53,851 nucleotides of DNA from a virus (lineage: Duplodnaviria > Caudoviricetes). This document shows positions 7,099 to 22,902 of the stretch, in pieces (position 1 is the stretch's first letter; the number at the start of each line of letters is the position of its first letter). Under the pieces are notes generated by a model. It saw nothing but the letters and a program-made list of their open reading frames with translations, was not told the origin of the DNA and searched no databases. The DNA lies in IMG/VR virus record IMGVR_UViG_3300022744_000036, positions 1 through 53,851 of that record. One strand, written 5' to 3'. Made by a program: the position numbers and the translations under genes.

Positions 7099-7110
7099 GG
7101 GCCCCTTTTT
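7087..7110. terminator. intrinsic terminator between convergent blocks
   Basis: Palindrome AGGGGCCCCTAGGGGCCCCT followed by a T run. Confidence 0.75.
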
Positions 7111-10100
7111 ATTGCGGCATCGCTTTCTGCAGCTTGCGCTCCCGGTCGGCCTGTGCCTTGGGGTACTTGAGCAACGTCGACAGGGGCTGGCGCTTCATCT
7201 CCTCGGGCTGGTCGTTGAACCAGTGGCGCACGTTGTCCTTGCCATCCTGCAGCTCCTGCCAGTCCTGGCGCAGCTTGGCGGCCTTCTCGTAGTCGTCGGC
7301 CTTCATCGCCTCCGCGTAGCGGTGCTCGATGTCCTTGGTGCGCTCCTGGTAGAACTGCCGGACCTCGTACTGCTGGCTGCGCAGCCACTCCATGTTCTTG
7401 AACGAGGTGCTCTTGAGACCAACCGCGTCGAGCGCCAGGGCAAACTCGTTGACGTCATCCGGCTTGACCATCACGTCGCCGTTCTTGAGCGTGTAGCCCT
7501 CGTTGGCGATGCGGGCAGCCTTCATGGCGTCGGCCGGGCCCTTGGGCATGAGCTGCTCGACCCCACGGTAGAAGTCCCCACGTTTGAAGTAGCCGACTCC
7601 TTCGGCGAACCGGCCGGCCTGCGACAGCGTAGGGCCACCCAGAATACCGCCCAGAGTCTGGGCCATCTCGCTGGCGCTGCCGAACTTGAAGTCGGTGTAG
7701 GGCGCGATGCTGAACACCTTGTCGTCACCCAGCTTGGAGGACATATCCAGGCCCACCATGTTGAGCGGGCCGTGCAGGAGCAAGTCAGCCACGAACGGGT
7801 CGCCGATCCACTCGCGCATCTGGCGCTCAGTGCTCCACGGCTCATCGTCGCCGCCGAACAGGGCGCCCATCACCAGGCCCACCAGGTTCATCGCGGGCAG
7901 GCCCAGCACGCCGGCCGCCATCGAGGTGTGGAACAGCTTGAACGCCAGCATGCGCTTGCCGATGGCCCGCTCCTCGGGGGTTGCGCCCGTGAACGCCTGC
8001 TTGAACGCCCGGGTGTAGAGCGCCGCCATCATGAACTGGTACTTGCGGTACTGCGTCATGACCTTGGGCAGGCGCTTGAGGAGCAGGGGTGCGCCCGTGC
8101 GCGAGAAGTCGCCCTGCGTGGTCTGCAGGATCCGCACTGCGTATTCCTGGGCGGCCTCTTCCGTGCGCCCCTTGGCGATCGCCATGTTGTAGGCCGCCGT
8201 AGCCGCAGCCACGCGGTTGGCCGTCTCCACCGCACGCGAGACCTGGCGCAGCTTGTGCAGCGCGGTGCGCACGCCCTTGGACGCCGCGTCCACCGGGGCG
8301 TAGCCCGTGCGGGTCGCCTCGAAGTGGGTGAGGTCCTCGTCCAGGCCAATGTCCAGCACGCCCATGTCAGCCGCGCGCTGCAGGGCACCACGCAGGCCCG
8401 GGTTCTTCACCCGCTCAAGCTGCAGCTGACCCCACACCCCGGTGTCCTTGAGGGCCTTGTAGCCGTCAGACAGGTGCTTCCACGCTCCGGAGTAGTCGCC
8501 GAAGTCTGCCGCCAGCTTGGGCAGCGTGACCATGAACCCCTGCGTCGCGTTGGCGACGTGGTAGCCCAGGCTGGTCAGCAGCTGCCAGGCCGACGTGAGG
8601 GCCATCGCCCGGTCGGTCCAAGGGGTCTCCTTGTACGACAGGTTCTCGCGGTAGTGGTCCGCGATGGCGTTGAACTCGTTCTGGTGCTCGCGCTTGCCCG
8701 TCAGCGGGTTGCGCGCCTCGCGCTGCATGCGGTAGAACGCCTCGTTGATCTTGCCCCCATGCTCCAGGTTGGCCAGCCAGTTGGCATCCGCTCGCGCGTG
8801 CGAGAGGAAGGAGCGGACCATGTCACTGTCGTAGCCCGCGCGGTTCATGCGCTTGAGCGTCGAGGTGCGGGCGTGGTGCTCGTCGATCGACTGGAAGTAC
8901 ATGTCCTGCACCATCTTGGTCAGGGCTTCCTTGGTGGCCTTTGGCATCGCCTCATCCGCACCCATGGCGGCCAGCAGGCGCTGCAGCGTCGCGTGCTTCG
9001 GGGCCATCGAGTCCGCCAGCTCAGCGGACTTCTCGAAGTGATCGGACCAGTCGAAGCCGCCGCCACCGGCCTTCGAGTTCTTCTCGGCGAACAGGGCGGC
9101 CTGACCGGGCGTGTCGAAGTACGACACCACGTAGTGGTTCGGGTCCTGCTTGAGGGCCTTGACCCGGCTGGCGTCGTCGGCCTGCTCGGCGTCCCGCAGC
9201 TCCTTGGACTTGAGCACCGCCACGTAGTCGCCGAAGCGCTTGAGGGGGGCGTAGGGCTTGCCGTCCGAGCCGGCACCCATGCTGGTGAGCTGGTCCACAT
9301 CGTCGAGCTTGAGGGCCTTCATCAGGCCCCGCTTGACCTTGAGCATCTTCTGCCCATGGGCGAACACGTCGCGCACCACTTGCTGCTCCTCGGGCTTGAG
9401 CAGGTTGAAGTCGCGCTGCAACGTCGGGTCCACCTCGTACTTGACGGGCTCGCCGGCCTTGTCCTCGGCGGGGAACAGGTCCTTGTGCTGCGGATCCAGG
9501 GACGGGTCGTAGCCCCACTTCTGCTGGAAGGTGGACTTGGACAGGAACTCGTTGACGTTCTGCGTCCCGCCAGGCAAACGCTCGGCAGCGGCAGCGACGC
9601 GCTCGGCGTCCTGCTTGAGCTTGTTGCGGGTAGCCTGGACATCCTGCACGCCCTTGTACCAGTCCTTGATGGAGGGCAGGCTGCCCTTGAGGTCATCCAC
9701 CAGGTCGTGCAGGAACGACAGCGAGTCGGCCAGTCGCCGTGCCGTGTGGGTCACGTCGGTTACCACCTGGGACCCCGTGGCTCCCGCCACTCGGCGGGCC
9801 GCAGCGGACACCGGGCTCGGGATGGGCCCGGCGTCGGGCTCGACAGAGAAGCGAATGTCGGGGTTGGGGCCGGTCGCGCCCTCTCCCGCGTAGCTGTACT
9901 TGCTCTCCGTAGAGCCGCCCCGGGTGTCTTCCCCGAGCTGGAAGTGGGCGGCGCCGTAGGCCATGTCCACCACGTCCTGGGCGGTCAGGCGCACCGTGCT
10001 GCCAAGCCTCAGCTTGGCCAGGCCCTTCTTGAGGGCGGCGACCAGGGTGCTCATCCAGCGCTCGACGTTCGTGCGGTACTTCATGGCCGTGGGGTCCACC

Positions 10101-13100
10101 CCGGCACGCACCGCCTCCTCGACGAAGTAGGCCGCCAGCTCCGAGCGCTTCTGCTCGTCGAGCGTACCGGCGTTGATGATCCGGGCCAGGGCCTTGCGGG
10201 CAAGACCCGCCTCCTGACTGCCGTCCGTCATCTCGGACCAGTCGAGGATCTGGTCGGTCAGGCGCTGGAACTCCTTGACGGTGAGGATCTCCTCCAGGCC
10301 CAGGTGCACGCCGGCCTCGTGCATGAGCACGGAGCGCGCGTTGCCCGGCTTTATGTTCCCAGCGATCAGGTACACCCGCCCTCCCGTCACGAACCCCTGC
10401 ACCCGCTTGGCCTTGGGGCCTTCCTTGGACAGCGACTTCTGCACGCGTGGAGGCAGCTCGGAAGCGTCCTGAACGACCACCAGGCGGGGCGACTGCAGCG
10501 CAAGACCCAGCCCCTTGAGTTCCGCCTTGACGGCATCGACCGTGCTGGACTGGCGTCCGGGGCCGGCGACCTTGGACAGCTGCGGCCGCTCCGCCGACAG
10601 CTCACCCCGGCTCATGCGGGACAGCGTATCCTTGGACAGGTGGCGGGCCGGCTCCTGGGCTACTTCGCGGGGCTCGACGTCGGTGACGTCCTGCTCTGCT
10701 CGGCTTGCAGCTCCTTGATCTGTTCGTTCAGCTTGGGGTCCACCTCCCTCCCGTTCAACTGCCTGAACTCCTGTATTAGCTTGAGTTCGTCCAGAGTTGG
10801 CAGCGGGTACTTTCGTGGGAGGGGCCTGCTTGTGGTCATTGGAAATCCTCAGTTGGAATTTGGCTAGGAGAGCGGCTTCAGTATTACCGATCTCCCCCTC
10901 ACCGGACTTCAGTTGGGTGCCGAACTCGGAAACCCAGTCCGCCTTCATGGCGTCGTGGAGATCTTCCCAACTCGGGATCACCGCACCGCCTGACTCCGCA
11001 TTGTCCACGGCTTGAGCGCGCCACTCGTCGGCCGCCATTTCGGCGAGCGGGGAGCCTAGCAAGCGTCGGATGTTTTCTGCACGCTTCGGCGCGTTCAGAG
11101 TGCGCAGGTCCGTAACGATGGCGCCTTCCGGGACTACCACCGCGTCCTCGCGCTTGGCGGGTGCGGGGCCTGCTTTCCGGAGAATGTCGTCAGCCTCCGC
11201 TGCCAGTTTGCGCTGCGCAGTGGTTGGGGCGTCACCAGTCAAATGCCCGTCTCCGGCGGCGGCCCCCAGAGTGTCCTCCACCCGGAATCCGGGGGCGTCA
11301 CCGGCCTCCACGTTGTCCAGGCCCAGCTCGCTGGCGTTGATGGCGTCGGGGCTAACGGCGCTGGCCAGCGCCACGCGCTCGTCGATGCCGAAGTCCTTGA
11401 GCGACGAGGTGATCGCCTGACGGGTCACTTTCTTGCCCGTGCGCTCGCTCTCGACCCGCGCGATCTCCGCAAACGGCATGGGGTCGCGGCCCTCGACCAG
11501 GATCGGGGCGCCCGTGTCCGGGTCTTCCGTGATGTCCCAGCCGGTGGCCAGCAGGATGCGGGACTTCTGCAGTGGGGTGGCGTGCAGGATCTTGTCCGAT
11601 ACCTGCTGGGCGGTCACCGCGCGCTCCCGGCCGGAGCGTCCCACAGTCGTCGTCTTGTTGGGGTCGATGCCGGCTACTGCAGGGGCGACGCCACTTCCAC
11701 CTGGTACAGCCACACCCGCTGCGCGGCTTGCTCCAGGTGCCGGGGTATCGACAGCACCATCAACTCGCTGGCCGGCAACGACAGGTACAGATCCTGCAGC
11801 TCGCTCGCCTCGTAGGGGAGCAACACCCGGTTGTCCACCAGTTCCTTGAGCCACGGGTTGAGCTTGGCCGGTTGTGCGGACATCTGCGGCTCCTTGAGTC
11901 GTGACGGGGGTGATGGGCTTGGCATCCGCCTCGGCTTGCAGGCGAGTGTGCTCGGCCTTGGCGTCGATGAACTTGCGCACGGAGGCGAACCGGCGGGTCT
12001 TGAGTTCCCCGATGCTCTCGGCGTAATCGCCGTCCTGAATCTGGCCGGACTCGTGCAGCGCCTTGAGTTCGCCGAACAGCCCAACGGCCTTGTCGCCCTG
12101 AAGCCCGAAACCGGCGGCCTCGGCGCGCAGCGCCTCAATCCGTGCGGCGTGCTCGTCAGCCTGACGCTTGATCTCGTCCTGACGGGCCTTGTTCGCCAGC
12201 CACACCTGGCGGGCCATGGCGGCCCCCGGGTCGGTCATGTTCTCGGTATCGACGGGGTTGCCCGTCAGGTTGCCGAAGGAATCCGCGTGGACCGTGTCAC
12301 CCTGGAGGTTGACGGCGGGCATCTGCAAGGTCGGGGCGACGGCGCCCTCAACGCGAGGGTCCACCGGGCGGCCATCGCCAGCATACGGGCGCGGATCGTC
12401 GATAGCCAGGGTCAGGCCGGACGTATCGATGGCGGGGATCTGTGTACCCGACGGGCGCCCCTGCGGCAGCTCCTGTTGGGGACCGACCACATCGAGGCCG
12501 CGCGGAATCGCAGTCACACCCTCAAAGCCCTGGGTAGTAGTCCACTCGGGAGTCAGATCGCCAAGCGCCGGGTCATACGCCCGGTTCGGGATGGGGGCCT
12601 GCAGCGGCGCGCCCGTGTCGACACCCTCGAAACCCTGCGCCGTGGTGAGCCCGCCGGGGTTTAGTAGGTCCTTGCCGCCCGTCTGGTCGATCGACGGCGT
12701 GGGGGCGCGACGCCCGGAGCGGATTCCGCCCGGCAGGCCCATGAGACCTTCAACCAGGCCCCCCGCCACCCCGGAGTTCAGGCGCTTGGAGAACGCATCG
12801 TCGGGGCTCACGCGGCCGTTGTAGGCCATCTCCATCTCGTTCTGGAGCAGCTCACTCGTGGCGCCGGTCGCGCCTTGCGTGGCACCGGCCTTGCCGATAC
12901 GGGTCAGCAGGTTGCCCTGGAACCCGGCGCCGTGTCCGATACGCCCGACCAGCATGGCCTCGGGCAGGGTCTCCGTGAGGGCGTAAGGCAGGCCGCCCGC
13001 CAGCGCAGCAGCGCCCGAGTTCGGATCGCCCCCTTCGACGGCTTCCTGGTACAGCGAGCCGACACCTTGGCCGTAGTTGAACGCGCCGCCGCCGACTACC

Positions 13101-13612
13101 TGCTTGGCGAAAGTCTGACCGGCCTCCAAGGCCGCGCGGCGCGCAGCAAATTCGGAGCCGCCGGTAGCCGCAGCCTCCGCCACGCGAGCGGCCATCCCGC
13201 CGCCACCAAGAGCCCTGGGGAGCAGAGCCGCCCCACGAGACAGCGCCGCCGGTACCGCCACTTCCGGGACCACGAGGCCCGCCGCAATGGCGCCGCCGAT
13301 GTTCGGAACCTGCTTGGCCACCTGGTAGGTGGCGTAAGGGAGCCACTTGCTCGGCTTGTCCCACACGTCCTCGACGCGCTCCAGGTCCGGGCGGCCGTTG
13401 AGCTGCGACTCCCGCTGGTTGCGGTCAGCCTGCTCGTTGAGCCAGTCGCGGGCACGATCGGCACCAAAGGTGTCGGCCATGGCCCCGAGCGCACTGTAGC
13501 CAAGACCCTGTAGATCGTCGGTACCGGACGACAGGCCCGCCACGAGCGCATTGCGCTCCGGGCGAGGGCCCAGGTCAAAGCTCTGGAGAATTCGACCTTC
13601 GATGACGGGCAT
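7109..13612 (-). CDS. giant internal virion/ejection protein of the polyvalent type
   Basis: 2167 aa, last gene of the virion operon. HEAGVH zincin-like motif and YAPLKRFGDY (PLxRFG) motif. Confidence 0.8.
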   Translation of the reverse strand: MPVIEGRILQSFDLGPRPERNALVAGLSSGTDDLQGLGYSALGAMADTFGADRARDWLNEQADRNQRESQLNGRPDLERVEDVWDKPSKWLPYATYQVAKQVPNIGGAIAAGLVVPEVAVPAALSRGAALLPRALGGGGMAARVAEAAATGGSEFAARRAALEAGQTFAKQVVGGGAFNYGQGVGSLYQEAVEGGDPNSGAAALAGGLPYALTETLPEAMLVGRIGHGAGFQGNLLTRIGKAGATQGATGATSELLQNEMEMAYNGRVSPDDAFSKRLNSGVAGGLVEGLMGLPGGIRSGRRAPTPSIDQTGGKDLLNPGGLTTAQGFEGVDTGAPLQAPIPNRAYDPALGDLTPEWTTTQGFEGVTAIPRGLDVVGPQQELPQGRPSGTQIPAIDTSGLTLAIDDPRPYAGDGRPVDPRVEGAVAPTLQMPAVNLQGDTVHADSFGNLTGNPVDTENMTDPGAAMARQVWLANKARQDEIKRQADEHAARIEALRAEAAGFGLQGDKAVGLFGELKALHESGQIQDGDYAESIGELKTRRFASVRKFIDAKAEHTRLQAEADAKPITPVTTQGAADVRTTGQAQPVAQGTGGQPGVAPLRGERAAGSVPVVAGQRVDGAVDTPAPGASRAAGVAVPGGSGVAPAVAGIDPNKTTTVGRSGRERAVTAQQVSDKILHATPLQKSRILLATGWDITEDPDTGAPILVEGRDPMPFAEIARVESERTGKKVTRQAITSSLKDFGIDERVALASAVSPDAINASELGLDNVEAGDAPGFRVEDTLGAAAGDGHLTGDAPTTAQRKLAAEADDILRKAGPAPAKREDAVVVPEGAIVTDLRTLNAPKRAENIRRLLGSPLAEMAADEWRAQAVDNAESGGAVIPSWEDLHDAMKADWVSEFGTQLKSGEGEIGNTEAALLAKFQLRISNDHKQAPPTKVPAANSGRTQANTGVQAVEREGGGPQAERTDQGAASRAEQDVTDVEPREVAQEPARHLSKDTLSRMSRGELSAERPQLSKVAGPGRQSSTVDAVKAELKGLGLALQSPRLVVVQDASELPPRVQKSLSKEGPKAKRVQGFVTGGRVYLIAGNIKPGNARSVLMHEAGVHLGLEEILTVKEFQRLTDQILDWSEMTDGSQEAGLARKALARIINAGTLDEQKRSELAAYFVEEAVRAGVDPTAMKYRTNVERWMSTLVAALKKGLAKLRLGSTVRLTAQDVVDMAYGAAHFQLGEDTRGGSTESKYSYAGEGATGPNPDIRFSVEPDAGPIPSPVSAAARRVAGATGSQVVTDVTHTARRLADSLSFLHDLVDDLKGSLPSIKDWYKGVQDVQATRNKLKQDAERVAAAAERLPGGTQNVNEFLSKSTFQQKWGYDPSLDPQHKDLFPAEDKAGEPVKYEVDPTLQRDFNLLKPEEQQVVRDVFAHGQKMLKVKRGLMKALKLDDVDQLTSMGAGSDGKPYAPLKRFGDYVAVLKSKELRDAEQADDASRVKALKQDPNHYVVSYFDTPGQAALFAEKNSKAGGGGFDWSDHFEKSAELADSMAPKHATLQRLLAAMGADEAMPKATKEALTKMVQDMYFQSIDEHHARTSTLKRMNRAGYDSDMVRSFLSHARADANWLANLEHGGKINEAFYRMQREARNPLTGKREHQNEFNAIADHYRENLSYKETPWTDRAMALTSAWQLLTSLGYHVANATQGFMVTLPKLAADFGDYSGAWKHLSDGYKALKDTGVWGQLQLERVKNPGLRGALQRAADMGVLDIGLDEDLTHFEATRTGYAPVDAASKGVRTALHKLRQVSRAVETANRVAAATAAYNMAIAKGRTEEAAQEYAVRILQTTQGDFSRTGAPLLLKRLPKVMTQYRKYQFMMAALYTRAFKQAFTGATPEERAIGKRMLAFKLFHTSMAAGVLGLPAMNLVGLVMGALFGGDDEPWSTERQMREWIGDPFVADLLLHGPLNMVGLDMSSKLGDDKVFSIAPYTDFKFGSASEMAQTLGGILGGPTLSQAGRFAEGVGYFKRGDFYRGVEQLMPKGPADAMKAARIANEGYTLKNGDVMVKPDDVNEFALALDAVGLKSTSFKNMEWLRSQQYEVRQFYQERTKDIEHRYAEAMKADDYEKAAKLRQDWQELQDGKDNVRHWFNDQPEEMKRQPLSTLLKYPKAQADRERKLQKAMPQ
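10660..10839 (-). CDS. nested 59-aa gene in the +1 frame of the giant virion protein
   Basis: MTTSRPLPRKYPLPTLDELKLIQEFRQLNGREVDPKLNEQIKELQAEQSRTSPTSSPAK. GAGGA 6 nt upstream; GC3 bias shifts to this frame. Confidence 0.55.
   Translation of the reverse strand: MTTSRPLPRKYPLPTLDELKLIQEFRQLNGREVDPKLNEQIKELQAEQSRTSPTSSPAK
11674..11883 (-). CDS. nested 69-aa gene in the +1 frame of the giant virion protein
   Basis: MSAQPAKLNPWLKELVDNRVLLPYEASELQDLYL... AAGGAG 6 nt upstream; GC3 bias shifts to this frame. Confidence 0.65.
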   Translation of the reverse strand: MSAQPAKLNPWLKELVDNRVLLPYEASELQDLYLSLPASELMVLSIPRHLEQAAQRVWLYQVEVASPLQ

Positions 13613-13624
13613 GGGCCGCCCTCC

Positions 13625-15271
13625 TTATCGTGCGTTGGCTTGCTGGTACTGCGTGATCCTGCGGGCGATCTCGGGTACGGCACGGGGGTTGTTGCGCTGG
13701 GCCGCGCGGTACTCAGCCCACAAGGCATACAGGGCCGGGTCACGGCTGGCCGTGGCTGCTGCCGCTTCTGCGGCGCGCTTGGCGGGAAGGGCGACCTGCC
13801 GCGCCTCTTGTCCGCTGCGCTCATAGAGCGACCGGGCGTCCGTCAGGGCGGGTGCGGGGGGCGCGGTCGACGCCCCACTCGGCAGGTCCCCGGTCTTTGC
13901 CGGAGCCTTGGCTTTGGCCGCTTCCGCTGCGGTCGAGTACGTCTGCCCGTCGCCCCCAACAAACCCGAGCTTCACGCCGCTGTCGGTCTCGACGTTCACC
14001 AGCTCCACACCCACGTCCTGCGCCTGCTTGCGGTAGGACTCCAGGGTCGTCGACGTCATGCCCAGCGGGATGGCGAAACCATTGTAGGTGTTGTAGAGCG
14101 CCCGACCGCCGTCCTTGGAGAACGCGGTGTACGTGCCGTCGTCGTTCTTCTTCTGCTCCACCGGCAGGTCCAGCAGCTTCTTGGCCCCGGAGCCCCCCGT
14201 CGCCGGACGGCCGAGGTTGATCTGCCCGCCGTTGCGGACGTTGAGCATGTTGAAGCGTGTAAGCAGACCGCGCCCCTCGTCCCCCTGCTGCTGGGCGGGG
14301 GTGAGCTTGTCCCACTGAGCCTGGAGTTGAACCGCTTCCTCGCGGCGCCCTTGCGCATCGCGGATGTCCTGCAGCTGCGCGTTCTTGAGGTCGCGCGTGG
14401 TGTTGGCGTTCATCATTGCCGCGCCGGCTTGCGTCTGGTGCGCGCGGGCCGTAATGAGCCCGTTCTGGTCCTGGGCAGCGTCGTGGGTCGCCGTATTGTT
14501 GCCCTTGGCCAGCGCTTCTTGCACCTTGTTCCACTCGCCAATGTGGCCGGCGATGTCCTTGTGCGCAGCCTGGAGCGTCGCCATGGCGTCCGCACCGAAG
14601 CCAGCCTCGCCGTAAGCGTGGGCCAGCGCAACCTGGCGCAGCTGAGCTTCGTTGAGCGTGAACTGCGACCCCGCGATGGGGGTCTTGCCATCCGCCTCGG
14701 TCTTGAGGAAGGTGTAGCCGTTCTTGTCCTTGCCCGTGTAGAGCATCGGGTAGCCGCTCAGGTTGATGTCGGCCGCCTGCCGCTCCAGGTCCTTGAGCGA
14801 GGTCTTCATGACCGAGGCCGCCACCGCGTCCTTGCGCTGGGCCTTGGCTTCGGCTTCCAGGGTGGTCAGGGCGTTGGGGTCCCGCATCGCCACGGCGATG
14901 TTTTGACGGGCTGCAAGCAGCTCGGCCGGGGAGGCCGTGCGTTGCACCAGAGGGGCACGCGTTCCATCCGGAAGCTGTAGCCCGGTGGGCTGTGCCTGTT
15001 GGCTGGCGGGGACCGGGCCCAGGCCGCCAGGGGCCGACACGGACGTGCCGAAGTCCACCTTGGAGCCGTCGACCACGCCGCCTTGCAGCGCCGAGTAGTT
15101 CTTGAAGGCCGCGTCCTGGCTTTGACGATCGTTCTGCCGCCAGCTGAATTCGGCCTGCCGCTGGGCCGCCTCTTGCTCGCGCATGGCCATCTCTCGCTGG
15201 CGCAGCTTCTGGTCCTCCGCAGAGTCCCAGGCGTCCATGCCGAATTTCAGGCCGGTCTGAAAAGCACCCAT
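13625..15271 (-). CDS. internal virion/ejection protein
   Basis: Gln/Ala-rich helical protein between virion genes; GAGGAGG RBS. Confidence 0.7.
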   Translation of the reverse strand: MGAFQTGLKFGMDAWDSAEDQKLRQREMAMREQEAAQRQAEFSWRQNDRQSQDAAFKNYSALQGGVVDGSKVDFGTSVSAPGGLGPVPASQQAQPTGLQLPDGTRAPLVQRTASPAELLAARQNIAVAMRDPNALTTLEAEAKAQRKDAVAASVMKTSLKDLERQAADINLSGYPMLYTGKDKNGYTFLKTEADGKTPIAGSQFTLNEAQLRQVALAHAYGEAGFGADAMATLQAAHKDIAGHIGEWNKVQEALAKGNNTATHDAAQDQNGLITARAHQTQAGAAMMNANTTRDLKNAQLQDIRDAQGRREEAVQLQAQWDKLTPAQQQGDEGRGLLTRFNMLNVRNGGQINLGRPATGGSGAKKLLDLPVEQKKNDDGTYTAFSKDGGRALYNTYNGFAIPLGMTSTTLESYRKQAQDVGVELVNVETDSGVKLGFVGGDGQTYSTAAEAAKAKAPAKTGDLPSGASTAPPAPALTDARSLYERSGQEARQVALPAKRAAEAAAATASRDPALYALWAEYRAAQRNNPRAVPEIARRITQYQQANAR

Positions 15272-20000: not shown

Positions 20001-21154
20001 GACACCACCCCCGAGGCGCTGGCCGCCAGGCCGATGTAGGGATTGGTCAGCACCGGGACAATGGTCGCCGTGCCCTGCGTGATGCGGTACAGCGTCACTG
20101 TGTCGGTGTAAGTCGAAGCCCCCACGGTCAGCGACGCCGTGAAGGTCATCGAGTCGCCCGTGAAGTCGCCCCCTCCGACCGTCCAGGTATTCGCCCCTGT
20201 GGGCACGGTGCCCGTGAAGGTGCCGGAGCCGTGCGCCCAGGTGACGAACCCGGACAGGCCGCCCGACAGGTTCGCCGTGAGTGTGATCGAAGACGGGCTG
20301 GTGGAGCTACCCGACACGAGAAAGATCACGCCCGAATAGCTCAGTGACAGGTCCGGCGTGGTGGCCAGGTCCGGCAGGTCAACGTTGTAGTAGAGCGTGT
20401 CCGTGGACAGCACGCCCAAGGCCCGGGACTTGATGGCGAAGCGGTACTTGCCGGCCGCCCCGGCGCGCGTCTCGAACGGGCTCTGCGTCAGTATGCCGTC
20501 GTACCAGCCGGTCATCGTGTCCCACGTGTCCGTGCCATAGGACCCAGAGCCGTAGTAGGCCCAGCGAACTTGCGCACCCTCGTAGCCCACCGGGGGCTTG
20601 GTCGTGGTGTAAGCCCAGGACAGCTCGCGCGTGCCGTCAGCGAGCGCGGACACCGTGAAGGTGTCGAACACCGGAGGCGTCGTCTCGGCCGGGATCGTCG
20701 TCCCGAGGCGCGCGGCAAGATCCACCAGGCGACGGGTCAGGTTGTCCCGCACCGCGTTCAGCAGGTCCTCCAGGCGGCTGTCCCCGCCTGCCCGTTTGGT
20801 GGCTTCCTCGCCGATGGCTGCCAGGAGCTGCTGCTTGATCGAAGCGTCCGTTGCGCCCGTGACGGTCTTGGCGGTATCCGTGGACAGGCCGAGCCGACTC
20901 AGAAGCTCCGTAGCGCTGATGAGCTGATACCGGCCATCTGCCAACTGGGTCACGAAACCCGGCTTGCCGTCAGGCAAGGCTACCCGCGTGCGGGTCAGGA
21001 CGCCGAGAGACTCCAACTCACCCCGCAGGACTGTCTTCTCAGACGTGTCGCCACGGCTGCCCTCGCGGATCTCAAGGCGCTCCTTGACCGCTTCGAGGAA
21101 GCTGTCGAGGTCGGGCTTCCCGGTGCGGACAGGCTGCAGTGCTGGTAGCTTCAT
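17063..21154 (-). CDS. large tail fibre/adhesin with tandem Ig-like repeats
   Basis: 1363 aa, Ser/Thr/Gly-rich; repeated ~110-aa modules ending in VRI.R.TDG or ITKQ.AG.DG. Confidence 0.75.
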   Translation of the reverse strand: MKLPALQPVRTGKPDLDSFLEAVKERLEIREGSRGDTSEKTVLRGELESLGVLTRTRVALPDGKPGFVTQLADGRYQLISATELLSRLGLSTDTAKTVTGATDASIKQQLLAAIGEEATKRAGGDSRLEDLLNAVRDNLTRRLVDLAARLGTTIPAETTPPVFDTFTVSALADGTRELSWAYTTTKPPVGYEGAQVRWAYYGSGSYGTDTWDTMTGWYDGILTQSPFETRAGAAGKYRFAIKSRALGVLSTDTLYYNVDLPDLATTPDLSLSYSGVIFLVSGSSTSPSSITLTANLSGGLSGFVTWAHGSGTFTGTVPTGANTWTVGGGDFTGDSMTFTASLTVGASTYTDTVTLYRITQGTATIVPVLTNPYIGLAASASGVVSSFGSAKTGIMQVYYGGVLQSSGLTFSVHSDPDSLGVTISNTSGATYGQYSLSFPGSPSGWWTSSATTSNVTLRAALTADPGSYRDIALVVSKQLAGTDGTDFNAVFLTSSSLTMGLDSAGAAYPAAQAAALTLTRQPTSLSGTATFTATAYNSSSSSLGSVTLTGSGDSRSLTSTAFMQPGGSFSNSVQYVDVVATVGALSSTVRIVRLTDGAEPIISGLTKPSVALQSANDGTVSDYSGAQHSASAPQQFKITQGGTTLSSGVTYSQVSFTGVTAVSGPYAGSSCINPSTGEYGVSSITWSTGDTAQITFRATHSSGATRDAVFTITRVRAGATGADAQLITLTTNNANFAFTTTGAEYPSSGQSATFTVTRTPSSLAGTVTWSATAYSSTGSVLATLTSYLTGSGDSRTLTAANFILPGNPVQYVDVTATLGSLATKSVRILRITDGQEPYLSILTTGQSVSVPADSTGAVTSWSNAAGSLQLYQGGSLITSGLTYSIQANPSTLTATMNSSTGAFAVTGSGSWANSSNQTTITFRVALTAAPSVYRDVPLTITKQVAGVDGISYEFSNQNHTVPADSAGAVTSYTGSGTTIRMLEGSTYLTYHSTTLAAGRFTIGTPTVSPAGKITVGAISGSTTTTATVAVASAMDSATDVVTITFPVTVRRANGADVTLNLVQTIAKTKSGSTGTRGSRTVYDTNVAYTSTYNNGSGAGSASYKSQATTLIAAAVAGLTPTTPIKGDTVVFSNGTSYSTTYSNDGTYSTNGNSSWSVLTQVIDGSLLVTGTVSMAALKAGTYTGGQGVFGIDTSVGAYTPLAYFEKAGSTYRQNPLVLMEDDFTGTNSALGAQILEIYAERSAALKVETGALNVAGSPIWFSDGYAAAKSQSDPFFRCSGNASFDVGWITYAGTVIGKPDGVGRKILASDGAWRTLHVNAGGGATVSIPSSVSTKPGTYTGAPTWIEYDDNGTLYEILAWRAN

Positions 21155-22902
21155 GAGGCTTTCAGCTCCGCAGTGCTGGACGCGATAGTCACCTCAGTGA
21201 CCCGCGCCGTCGTCTCGACTTCCATCTCTATCTCTTTCGGCCTCCCCGGGGGCAGCCGCGTCGGTGTAGAGCTGGTCAGCGTGGAGGTGTGCCAGAGCGC
21301 GCCGTCCGCGTACAGCCGCACCACGACCGGCGACGACCAGTCGGACAGGGCGTTGATCCACGCAAACCCTGCCTGCTTGGGCTGAACTTGGATGCGCGAG
21401 CGCCACAGCCCCGACGCGCGGCCCGATTTGAACTGGGGGGCCACGTTGGTACCGCTCGCCACATACAGGGTGTCGGTCGTCTTGTCCGCCCGGGCCGCCG
21501 TGGCTGTGATAGTCATCTTCACCAACTTGCCAGTGGCCAGATGCAAGGCGTAGCACCCACCGCCCGACCCGGCGTACCAGAAGTAGTAGATCCCGTCGTG
21601 CTCAGCAGCGAACATACCAGTAGGCGTTAGGGCCTGCCAGTCCTCGCGCGAGAACATGGACCCCGTCACGACTTTCACGCCGCTTTGGTCCGCGACGCAC
21701 AGCCCATCGGGGGAGGCGTATACGACGGCCCCGTCCACCGTGACCATGGAGCGCGGGGACGCGCACACCTGAAGGCTGACCGACTTGATGCGGGACATCG
21801 AACTGGGGTCCGCCCCGCTGATGTAGTCGATGCCGCCGGCATGGGAGACGACCAGGGTCTGGTTGAACACCCCTAGCGCGTTGACGTCGTACTCCAACGC
21901 CACCCGGTAGTCCTGCGGCCAGGCATACGGGTGGTACGGCTCGCAGAAGTACACCGTGGACCCGATGTATCCGGCGATGATGCCGTTGGGCAGGCCCGTC
22001 ATGCCGCTCAAGTACACGCCGCTCACCACAGGGGGCTCGGCCCACGTCGACGAGGGGCAGGTCTCACCCAGCGCGTTGGTCGCCACATCGTCGGTGAGCG
22101 ACAGGTTGGCGCCGTGGGTGACCGGCCACAGGCCGTCCGCCCGGACCGGGTTGGGTACGAGCTGGAAAGCCGCCGTGTCGGAGCCCGCCAGTGAACGGTA
22201 GACGTTGACCCCCACGATGTCGCGCGTGCCGCCCGTACCCCAGTCAACCGTCGCCGGCTTGGTCAGCGTCAGACCCACCGTGTCATTTTGGTCCAGCTCG
22301 ACCACGTCCGATACCGGGCTCGGTGCGGACTCCTCCCCGAGACCGGAGACGTGGGTGTAGATGTACGCCCGCTCCTCAACGATGCGCTGCACCGCCGCCG
22401 GGATGCGCAGGTCGATCTGGTTCTGGTTGAACATCGTCACCAGGGCCTGCACCAGCATGCTCTGGTCATCCGTGCGCCAGGCCTCCAGGTAGTAGGCCTC
22501 GATCTCCTGCTGCAGCCTCTTGATTTCGGCGTCCGCGTTCAGGATCGCCGTGACCATGCCCGCATTGAGCGCGCCGGCCGACAGGTCCGGGTAATCCGGA
22601 CGCGCCTGGATTGCGGCCGGGCCGATCTTGGCGTCCAGTGCGTTGACTTGGGTTTGAGCCGTGCCGGCGTTGAACGCGCGGGCCGCCAGATCCACCGCTC
22701 CGCCCAGTGACGTGTCGGCGCCGGACGGCAGGCCAGAATCGGACCTGATGGCGAGGAACTGATCCTGCAGCCATGCCGCCAGGCCGGCCACGTCAAGCCG
22801 CTTGACGCCGTCGGCGCCCGTGGTGTACCGGGACTGCACCTCGGAGATGATGCCGGCCACCGCCGTGGACCGCACGCCATTTGCGTAGACGACAGTGGTC
22901 AT
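21151..22902 (-). CDS. tail hub/stabilisation protein (gp10-like), C-terminal part
   Basis: YIYTHVSGLGEESAPSP, LPNGIIAG, FCEPYHPYAWP, YASPDGL, REDWQAL and RLPPGR motifs. Confidence 0.7.
   Translation of the reverse strand: MTTVVYANGVRSTAVAGIISEVQSRYTTGADGVKRLDVAGLAAWLQDQFLAIRSDSGLPSGADTSLGGAVDLAARAFNAGTAQTQVNALDAKIGPAAIQARPDYPDLSAGALNAGMVTAILNADAEIKRLQQEIEAYYLEAWRTDDQSMLVQALVTMFNQNQIDLRIPAAVQRIVEERAYIYTHVSGLGEESAPSPVSDVVELDQNDTVGLTLTKPATVDWGTGGTRDIVGVNVYRSLAGSDTAAFQLVPNPVRADGLWPVTHGANLSLTDDVATNALGETCPSSTWAEPPVVSGVYLSGMTGLPNGIIAGYIGSTVYFCEPYHPYAWPQDYRVALEYDVNALGVFNQTLVVSHAGGIDYISGADPSSMSRIKSVSLQVCASPRSMVTVDGAVVYASPDGLCVADQSGVKVVTGSMFSREDWQALTPTGMFAAEHDGIYYFWYAGSGGGCYALHLATGKLVKMTITATAARADKTTDTLYVASGTNVAPQFKSGRASGLWRSRIQVQPKQAGFAWINALSDWSSPVVVRLYADGALWHTSTLTSSTPTRLPPGRPKEIEMEVETTARVTEVTIASSTAELKAS

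Follow-up and report, generated by a model that had tools for sequence, protein, structure and literature searches.

The window analyzed here, a 53,851-bp virus record from IMG/VR (IMGVR_UViG_3300022744_000036) that is judged 90% complete and has a G+C content of 65%, contains a small gene lying wholly inside, and in the +1 frame of, a giant gene for a putative virion protein on the same strand. We refer to the small gene as A and to the giant gene as its host gene. Sequence comparisons lead us to regard A as a real, separately initiated gene that is under selection, with a probability of about 80%, and we infer that it is translated. The interval would then be dual-coding: the host frame would be read as an unconstrained linker of Gly, Ala, Val and Pro between the N-terminal region of the giant protein and its next module, while other ribosomes would initiate at an AAGGAG-N6-AUG inside the same late mRNA, with a distinct, acidic protein of 69 residues and three predicted helices as the product. 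Selection would act on the amino acids of A and on the absence of stop codons from the host frame, and not on the sequence of the linker.

Start signal and codon composition of the nested gene

A occupies positions 11674-11883 of the minus strand and comprises 69 codons followed by TAG, in the +1 frame of the host open reading frame (ORF). Its start codon (ATG, 11883-11881) is preceded, at a distance of 6 nt (spacer CCGCAG), by the Shine-Dalgarno (SD) hexamer AAGGAG at 11895-11890, and its stop codon is at 11676-11674. A begins at host residue 576, and over the same interval (11672-11884, minus strand, residues 577-647) the host frame encodes a low-complexity linker, in which 48 of 70 residues are Gly, Ala, Val or Pro. 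The first-pass annotation of this DNA, made from the sequence alone, had described a 69-codon ORF in the +1 frame behind AAGGAG-6nt-ATG, opposite a Gly/Ala/Val/Pro linker with shifted codon bias, and all these elements are found on the minus strand where it had placed them.

The shift of codon bias is pronounced. Over the A interval, the G+C content at the first, second and third codon positions of the host frame (GC1, GC2 and GC3) is 0.90, 0.69 and 0.34, versus 0.70, 0.47 and 0.84 for the whole giant gene, and in a sliding scan of the entire 6.5-kb host ORF, GC3 drops below 0.5 in two stretches only, namely the A interval and a stretch at about 10880-10730. Read in the nested frame, the same DNA shows 0.63-0.73, 0.33 and 0.90-0.93, as real genes of this phage do. 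The periodicity of G+C content changes frame exactly over A, with boundaries that coincide with those of the ORF; an insignificant shift of codon bias, which the first-pass annotation had named as grounds for giving up the gene, is therefore not what was observed. The selection regime outlined above suffices to explain the values in both frames. The third positions of host codons lack a G+C bias because they are the second positions of A and are constrained, and the first positions of host codons reach about 90% G+C because they are the third positions of A, which are free to drift towards the G+C bias of the genome.

The start signal of A is not a chance occurrence. AAGGAG followed after 4-9 nt by ATG is found nine times in the window, versus 1.24 times expected, and none of 100 shuffled sequences reached nine. 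A start of the same type precedes the giant gene itself, as well as the gene at 21151-22902, which is assigned by PHROGs to internal virion proteins.

Homologs of A and their genomic context

The peptide encoded by A has homologs, for which we use the name A family (BA3_0004-like nested small protein, after the one annotated member described below); the members have 61-75 residues. A phmmer search of 1.84 billion representative sequences returned nine matches at E ≤ 1e-3, all of them 67-71 aa long, with the best one (E 2.5e-10) showing 51% identity and aligning its residues 1-67 with residues 1-69 of A. Since this search was made without a length filter and gave no longer match, an in-frame fused form of A is not apparent at this sensitivity. 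A profile search with the family returned 15 proteins of 67-72 aa. The homologs are 37-53% identical to the window peptide, which is itself, judging from significant similarity over its whole length, a member of the family, and the family profile matches the corresponding piece of the window with E 2.4e-25. In an alignment of 24 sequences, M1, L8, A26, P47 and L59 are invariant, and S2 and A3 are nearly so.

Several other searches returned nothing: searches for relatives in IMG/VR with the window peptide or with the downstream segment of the host gene, a word-indexed protein search with the window peptide, a blastn search of 1 kb around A against phages, and IMG/VR scans with the single family proteins P0012, P0034 and P0031. 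Only chance matches were obtained by tblastn, with the window peptide against 50,697 phage records (two rows, E 8) and against 73 host-related loci (E 3.2-6.1), and with P0034 against phages.

Most A proteins in the databases come from contigs of 0.4-5.7 kb (P0034 comes from a 40-kb contig), and their listing is uninformative on gene context. The carrier set with flanking DNA comprises the window and 11 further loci; nine of the 12 are clear, one is good and two are weak. In all 12, A lies in the +1 frame, wholly inside an uninterrupted giant ORF, and starts about 470-733 codons from the beginning of that ORF. The giant ORFs of the 11 other loci are between 825 aa (truncated where the contig stops) and 2951 aa long, and the G+C content of the carrier loci ranges from 41% to 67%. 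The start codon is conserved as ATG (GTG in two loci), and an SD-like motif with a spacer of 5-9 nt is present before it in 10 of the 12 loci. No free-standing copy of A was found, all 12 contexts with flanks being nested in a giant gene. To the question raised in the first-pass annotation, whether homologs are always nested or sometimes free-standing, the loci with flanks give nested cases only, and its refuting condition, that no homolog would retain the ORF, does not apply.

A profile search of 22,184 six-frame pieces of the loci regained eight known loci at E ≤ 1e-16 and added L037 (E 2e-7), L049 (8e-4) and L066 (0.017); in all three, the match is a +1-frame one and lies where it would be expected in the giant ORF. 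A pattern scan of metagenome contigs returned seven loci, three of which (L075, L076 and L077) contain true members of the family; the other four (L078-L081) are response-regulator genes that share only the DDWLKELVD motif with A, and they were dropped. Two more loci were added by a scan of genome contigs. L082 is a scaffold of Curvibacter lanceolatus ATCC 14669, which is also present in IMG/VR as a 62-kb provirus; a seemingly additional carrier, L089, is the same prophage and was counted once. L083 is a 9-kb contig from a metagenome-assembled genome labelled Candidatus Woesearchaeota; it consists almost wholly of one giant polyvalent ORF of the phage type and is probably a misbinned fragment of a phage.

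A is also present in cultured phages. Family member P0033, used as a tblastn query, matched the inside of the giant gene gp01 of Vibrio phage VvAW1 (L086), in which A is a +1 ORF of 61 codons with GGAG 8 nt before the ATG, and this ORF in turn led to the carrier vB_ValP_FGH. Phage BA3 was reached by comparison of structures: the top match of the A model in BFVD was A8HNW3, a protein of 110 aa (E 0.05, template modeling (TM) score 0.74, 32% identity), which by its equal length we infer to be BA3_0004 (YP_001552273.1), a 110-aa "hypothetical protein" of Thalassomonas phage BA3. BA3_0004 is encoded in the +1 frame, wholly inside the giant gene BA3_0002, and matches the family profile with E 8e-19 over its last 63 residues. 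The conserved part opens at an internal ATG preceded by GAGG; the annotated start lies 46 codons too far upstream, and the extension runs through a low-complexity stretch of Leu and Lys. BA3_0004 is the only annotated member of the family that we found.

Selection on the two overlapping frames

In six loci with clear DNA alignments, the identity is higher in the nested frame than in the host frame in all 15 pairs. The closest pair, L077 and L083, differs at 38 positions over the nested gene and is 82% identical in the nested frame versus 63% in the host frame; the differences per site at the first, second and third nested codon positions are 0.16, 0.09 and 0.31. With the effect on the host frame held non-synonymous, the rate of changes that are non-synonymous in the nested frame relative to those that are synonymous in it (dNN/dNS) is 0.47 (Fisher p 0.011), while the corresponding ratio for the host frame (dNN/dSN) is 3.3, i.e. 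there is no constraint. The nested frame is thus under purifying selection beyond what is explained by conservation of the host frame.

The host frame is kept open nonetheless. If the nested ORF is recoded with synonymous codons, the host frame survives in 4-36% of the recodings, depending on the locus, yet it is open in all six loci tested; the product of these probabilities is about 2.5e-5, or about 7e-5 if L083 is omitted, as L077 and L083 are related. The host frame is maintained for its continuity only, and A for its sequence.

Predicted structure of the A protein

An AlphaFold2 model based on 24 sequences has a mean predicted local distance difference test score (pLDDT) of 77.4 and a predicted TM-score (pTM) of 0.59, and it comprises three predicted helices (residues 10-17, 23-35 and 48-65). 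The window protein has an isoelectric point (pI) of 4.8, and 10 of the 12 members fall between 4.1 and 4.9. It contains no cysteine and no hydrophobic N-terminal segment or signal peptide. The best E-value was 0.3 in a profile search against sequences in the PDB and 8.9 in a Foldseek search of the PDB with the model. A wide search with VIA-align gave at best a retroviral matrix protein (Z 5.1, root mean square deviation 2.7 over 61 residues), which is below the noise guide of the tool for helical models, and the ESM Atlas offered no usable match. A complex prediction of A with host residues 1-340 scored 0.00 and gave no verdict, and we draw nothing from it.

The giant host gene

The host gene (7109-13612, minus strand) encodes a protein of 2167 aa and has its own AAGGAG at 13621-13626, upstream of the ATG at 13612; its frame is free of stops from 13612 to 7112. 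Upstream of it, on the same strand, are genes for terminase, portal/adaptor, major head, internal virion, tail and virion structural proteins, which indicates that the giant gene closes the late structural operon. In BA3 and in VvAW1, the giant gene adjoins genes annotated with "DNA ejection".

From its sequence, the host protein is classified as a polyvalent protein of the PLxRFG/DarB-like type with a C-terminal PLxRFG domain, and it is a putative virion protein. It contains a zincin-like HExxH motif (HEAGV..., residues 1098-1102, positions 10307-10321, minus strand), in which H1098, E1099 and G1101 are invariant in 10 relatives, and a PLKRFG motif (residues 1456-1461, positions 9230-9247, minus strand), in which P1456, L1457, R1459, F1460 and G1461 are likewise invariant in 10 relatives. 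Residues 1452-2125 match PHROG 10089, "DarB-like antirestriction", with E 1.6e-42, and a tblastn search with the C-terminal 730 aa retrieved 27 phage records with genes annotated as PLxRFG or DarB-like. No Pfam-A family was matched by the host protein.

Related genes vary widely in length. In L060 (9593-14035) and L002, the polyvalent gene has only 1480 codons and is 57% identical to residues 1013-2164 of the window protein; it begins approximately where the part behind the linker begins in the window protein, so that the N-terminal third is absent or encoded elsewhere. On the other hand, the DarB-like gp30 of Ochrobactrum phage POI1126 (L085, 21672-36197) spans 14.5 kb, or about 4840 codons, which is more than twice the size of the giant gene of the window.

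A as a module of its own

The host proteins of the carriers have little in common. BLASTP comparisons among eight of them revealed N-terminal similarity in two pairs only, and the window protein matches those of other carriers in the HExxH region only, both by BLASTP and by hhalign. A single homologous N-terminal domain preceding A in every carrier was considered and given up, as in an hhalign comparison the host family of the window and the L077 host protein share just the HExxH module. The L083 protein is 54% identical to that of L077 overall; the identity is 80-98% over the first ~340 residues (18-340), and it falls to 12-29% over residues 378-527, rises to 62-67% across the nested genes and is low again beyond them, so that A forms a conserved island between unrelated flanks.

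The opposite situation is found among the relatives of the window host protein. In L046, the closest of them with DNA available, the linker is about 50 residues shorter at this site and there is no A. For proteins from the databases, indirect evidence comes from a best-case compatibility scan, which tests whether the host protein could be spelled with codons that encode A in the +1 frame. Scores of 90-106 were obtained for the three positive controls. P0003, to which the window protein is closest among the database relatives, reached 85 at the homologous site (its 99.9th percentile is 60); the remaining eight gave 61-64, at scattered positions, and A is apparently absent from these eight of the nine. 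By sequence, A is thus patchy among the relatives of the window host protein, yet common to very different giant proteins.

The first-pass annotation had proposed that a giant injected protein carries embedded accessory genes that travel with its domains. The part of this proposal that concerns a real nested gene in the +1 frame stands, but the joint travel does not: the dissimilar flanks, the island in L077 and L083 and the absence from L046 indicate that A is a module of its own and not the passenger of one domain.

Alternative explanations and possible function

Some of the results weigh against this reading of A. No RNA runs that carry this stretch are listed, and the one DNA run is probably the source of the record. 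A recognizable SD motif was not seen in L037 and L049, and the profile E-values of L049 and L066 are weak, i.e. in two of the 12 loci. The selection test relies on one unsaturated pair with 38 differences, the other pairs being saturated. Searches of Pfam, PHROGs and NCBIfam gave no significant family for A (in the case of PHROGs with the window peptide and all 24 aligned members), and the searches of the PDB, by Foldseek and by VIA-align gave no convincing fold or solved structure.

As to function, we tentatively suggest, at somewhat less than even odds, that A assists the giant protein within the producing cell, for instance as a dedicated chaperone, an adaptor for assembly or packaging, or a mask of its activity, made in cis. 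This guess is prompted by the finding that A resides inside a giant polyvalent gene at every locus with flanks, even though the flanks themselves are exchanged. Three results speak against such a role: the flanking host domains differ between the carriers, L046 has no A at the corresponding site, and eight database relatives give no more than the low, scattered scores reported above. As most of the close host relatives tested seem to lack A, it is not indispensable for this protein family.

The strongest rival accepts A as a real gene and assigns it a function unrelated to the giant protein, such as host takeover or anti-defense; the linker would then simply tolerate the overprinting, and recombination would carry A from one gene to another. 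The patchy distribution just described (no A in L046 and, apparently, in eight of nine database relatives) and the unrelated flanks fit this possibility, as do the small size and mostly acidic nature of the product, since many phage-encoded inhibitors are small and acidic, and the host protein family itself is annotated as antirestriction-like. It is opposed by the lack of any free-standing copy among the loci with flanks, and by the finding that all 12 copies lie within giant genes, roughly equally far from the start of the giant ORF. We consider this possibility to be on the unlikely side but serious, and it is left standing, while the four explanations below are contradicted by specific results.

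One could also imagine A as a fossil: a once free-standing gene engulfed by a read-through fusion, which has kept its old codon pattern and is no longer expressed. The genome-typical codon composition is indeed found in the nested frame and not in the host frame, and in studies of overprinting such a pattern is usually taken to mark the older frame; moreover, a GC3-rich gene read in the -1 frame contains few stops by nature (in the window, 36% of the synonymous recodings leave the host frame open). A fossil, however, would be expected to decay, and here all 12 loci, with G+C contents as low as 41%, have kept the start codon and the open frame, 10 of them also an SD-like motif, and the closest pair reveals purifying selection on the nested frame. 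We therefore find a present-day fossil quite improbable, but engulfment by gene fusion is a plausible origin of A that is compatible with its being a dual-coding gene at present.

Even less probable is a chance ORF, i.e. an off-frame by-product of GC-rich coding DNA that happens to follow an SD-like hexamer and has no functional product. Off-frame ORFs are common in such DNA: there are 46 ORFs of at least 40 aa in 6 kb of it, and a 1251-codon ORF runs opposite the giant gene (window 7112-10867, plus strand), which is the usual mirror ORF of GC3-rich coding DNA and no gene. Because off-frame ORFs abound at 65% G+C, the length of the ORF alone is no evidence for A, and its peptide also belongs to no curated family. 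On the other hand, a chance ORF would not be expected to have homologs at 37-53% identity, nor to recur in an unchanged frame and position at 11 other loci of 41-67% G+C, nor to share its boundaries with the GC3 switch, and it is contradicted by the higher identity of the nested frame in 15 of 15 pairs and by the dNN/dNS of 0.47.

A programmed +1 frameshift similar to that of prfB, which would yield a truncated N-terminal giant protein ending in the A sequence, is about equally improbable. An SD-like element is indeed present just upstream, and no stop interrupts the +1 frame over the 85 codons that precede the ATG in the window or over the 316 codons that precede it in L076. At a prfB-like site, however, an SD precedes a stop or slow codon of the frame being read by about 3 nt, and the window SD is 6 nt before the ATG, in a junction (host frame CAA GGA GCC GCA GAT GTC) that has neither an in-frame stop nor a recognizable shift site. 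Every member has a conserved start codon, the 5-9 nt spacers are typical of initiation, and M1 is invariant, with S2 and A3 nearly so, in 24 sequences. In addition, L037 has a +1-frame stop one codon before the ATG, and in L075 the open +1 stretch starts just 14 codons upstream, so there is no common upstream window in which a shift could occur.

Finally, an artefact in which two compensating indels put a true in-frame domain out of frame, while imaginable for a metagenome-derived record, is practically negligible, given that a Logan contig made by a second assembler from the probable source run (depth ~18) agrees with 11300-12300 over 1001 bases without differences or gaps (which, for the same sample, speaks against assembler error only and lends no independent biological support), that 11 other loci, among them three cultured-phage genomes and one isolate genome, have A nested in the +1 frame as well, and that phmmer found no protein longer than 71 aa with the domain in frame.

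Other nested open reading frames

A is not the only candidate of its kind. The first-pass annotation had counted two such cassettes in the same host gene, and a second +1 ORF, of 59 aa, is indeed present at 10660-10839 (minus strand), with GAGGA 7 nt before its ATG, in the region of the other GC3 dip (~10880-10730). In four carriers, a further +1 ORF, named B, is found directly downstream of A in the same giant ORF (L075 6208-6351, L077 5307-5459, L082 6268-6420 and L083 3543-3692). The B ORFs have 47-50 codons, encode a basic N-terminus and end in WK(A/P)LG, and they are mutually similar (0-3 of 2000 shuffles reach the score). There is no B-type ORF after A in L076, L037, L049, L066, VvAW1 or FGH. 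The second nested ORF of the window resembles the B ORF of L082 only (5 of 2000 shuffles reach the score), and with a match in one of four comparisons we do not claim it as a homolog of B.

Further +1 ORFs under sharp dips of host GC3 are found in L022 (8562-8813, 8829-8984 and 9633-9809), L072 (7623-7778), L036 (9111-9311), L028 (9300-9548) and others. In these high-GC relatives they are located at about host residues 550-1000, and several have strong SD motifs; a peptide beginning with MPFKS-AQ is common to L022 and L072. Pfam searches with 10 other candidate nested ORFs gave no family. A survey of +1 ORFs in polyvalent genes, as suggested in the first-pass annotation, was made by a composition scan of the high-GC loci, and it supports an excess in giant genes: there are 26 candidates, which are unvalidated, in 268 kb of ORFs of at least 1000 codons versus 6 in 241 kb of ORFs of 300-999 codons, i.e. 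an about fourfold higher density. No candidate in the +2 frame was found in either size class.

Two more observations concern the cultured phages. In gp01 of VvAW1, a +1 open stretch of about 115 codons that includes MNLQNWISQAKKHW... is found some 460 bases further downstream than the start of A, and it looks more like a genuine protein than like the noise of an off-frame reading. In BA3, a second +1 ORF, BA3_0003 (L088 5036-5380, minus strand), is annotated inside BA3_0002; it is hydrophobic and of low complexity, matches the A profile with E 0.18 only, and may be a spurious call.

It is possible, if doubtful, that the linkers of giant polyvalent virion proteins are a general home for small +1 genes of several unrelated families (A, B with its WKPLG end, the MPFKS-AQ type and others) that are translated from internal ribosome-binding sites of the late mRNA and are shuffled by recombination among giant genes as dual-coding cassettes, with A as a dedicated partner of the giant protein (a chaperone, packaging adaptor or activity mask). 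If so, part of the apparent "linker" of such proteins would be the shadow of a hidden gene, and the genes for polyvalent proteins would carry an unrecognized layer of accessory genes.

Implications and comparison with known systems

Since gene-calling programs do not allow one gene to lie entirely within another, the A family is invisible in nearly all annotations; VvAW1 and vB_ValP_FGH have no annotation of A, and in BA3, the third cultured phage with this gene, it is annotated with a wrong start. The low-complexity spacers of giant phage proteins should therefore not be assumed to be single-coding. A is a clean natural case of two frames on one sequence, of which one is constrained, and its cultured carriers, namely VvAW1, vB_ValP_FGH, BA3 and the Curvibacter prophage, are direct systems for studies of its function. 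We found no published description of the family in the literature on PLxRFG, VvAW1, BA3 and overlapping genes (most subscription journals and supplementary files being outside this search), and no printed comment on BA3_0004.

The best-known likeness is to gene Rz1 of phage lambda, a small gene wholly embedded in the +1 frame of Rz, on the same strand and with its own SD and start, all of which applies to A as well. However, the product of Rz1 is a lipoprotein that has a signal peptide and a lipobox cysteine and binds Rz within a lysis cassette, whereas A has neither a cysteine nor a signal peptide, its host is a giant protein of the structural operon and no i-spanin, and the overlapped part is a low-complexity linker; A is thus not an o-spanin of the Rz1 type. 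Overprinted genes, in which two proteins are made from one stretch of DNA in different frames, are also known from small viruses such as phiX174, and in common with them A shows one constrained and one tolerant frame. The genome considered here, however, has 54 kb and is under no obvious pressure of size, the overlapped part is a spacer, and the unit recurs in unrelated host sequence.

In mycobacteriophage Patience, two embedded out-of-frame ORFs were detected by mass spectrometry and are described as generally not conserved (PMC4324244). A differs in being conserved across 12 loci and under purifying selection, and in being known from sequence alone. Polyvalent proteins of phages and conjugative elements were described by Iyer et al. 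2017 (PMC5512222), and the host gene is of this type, encoding a multi-domain giant with an HExxH peptidase-like module and a DarB-like/PLxRFG annotation. In the portion of that article open to a word search, "overlapping" does not occur and "nested" occurs twice, both times for a hairpin fold, so that genes hidden in linkers appear to lie outside the description given there. In the accessible text of the VvAW1 genome paper, which compares this phage with BA3, the word "overlap" does not occur either. Embedded +1 genes of phages as such are therefore not new; what distinguishes A is its location in the spacer of a giant multidomain protein, its recurrence in unrelated host sequence, and its presence over a wide range of G+C content and in several host genera.

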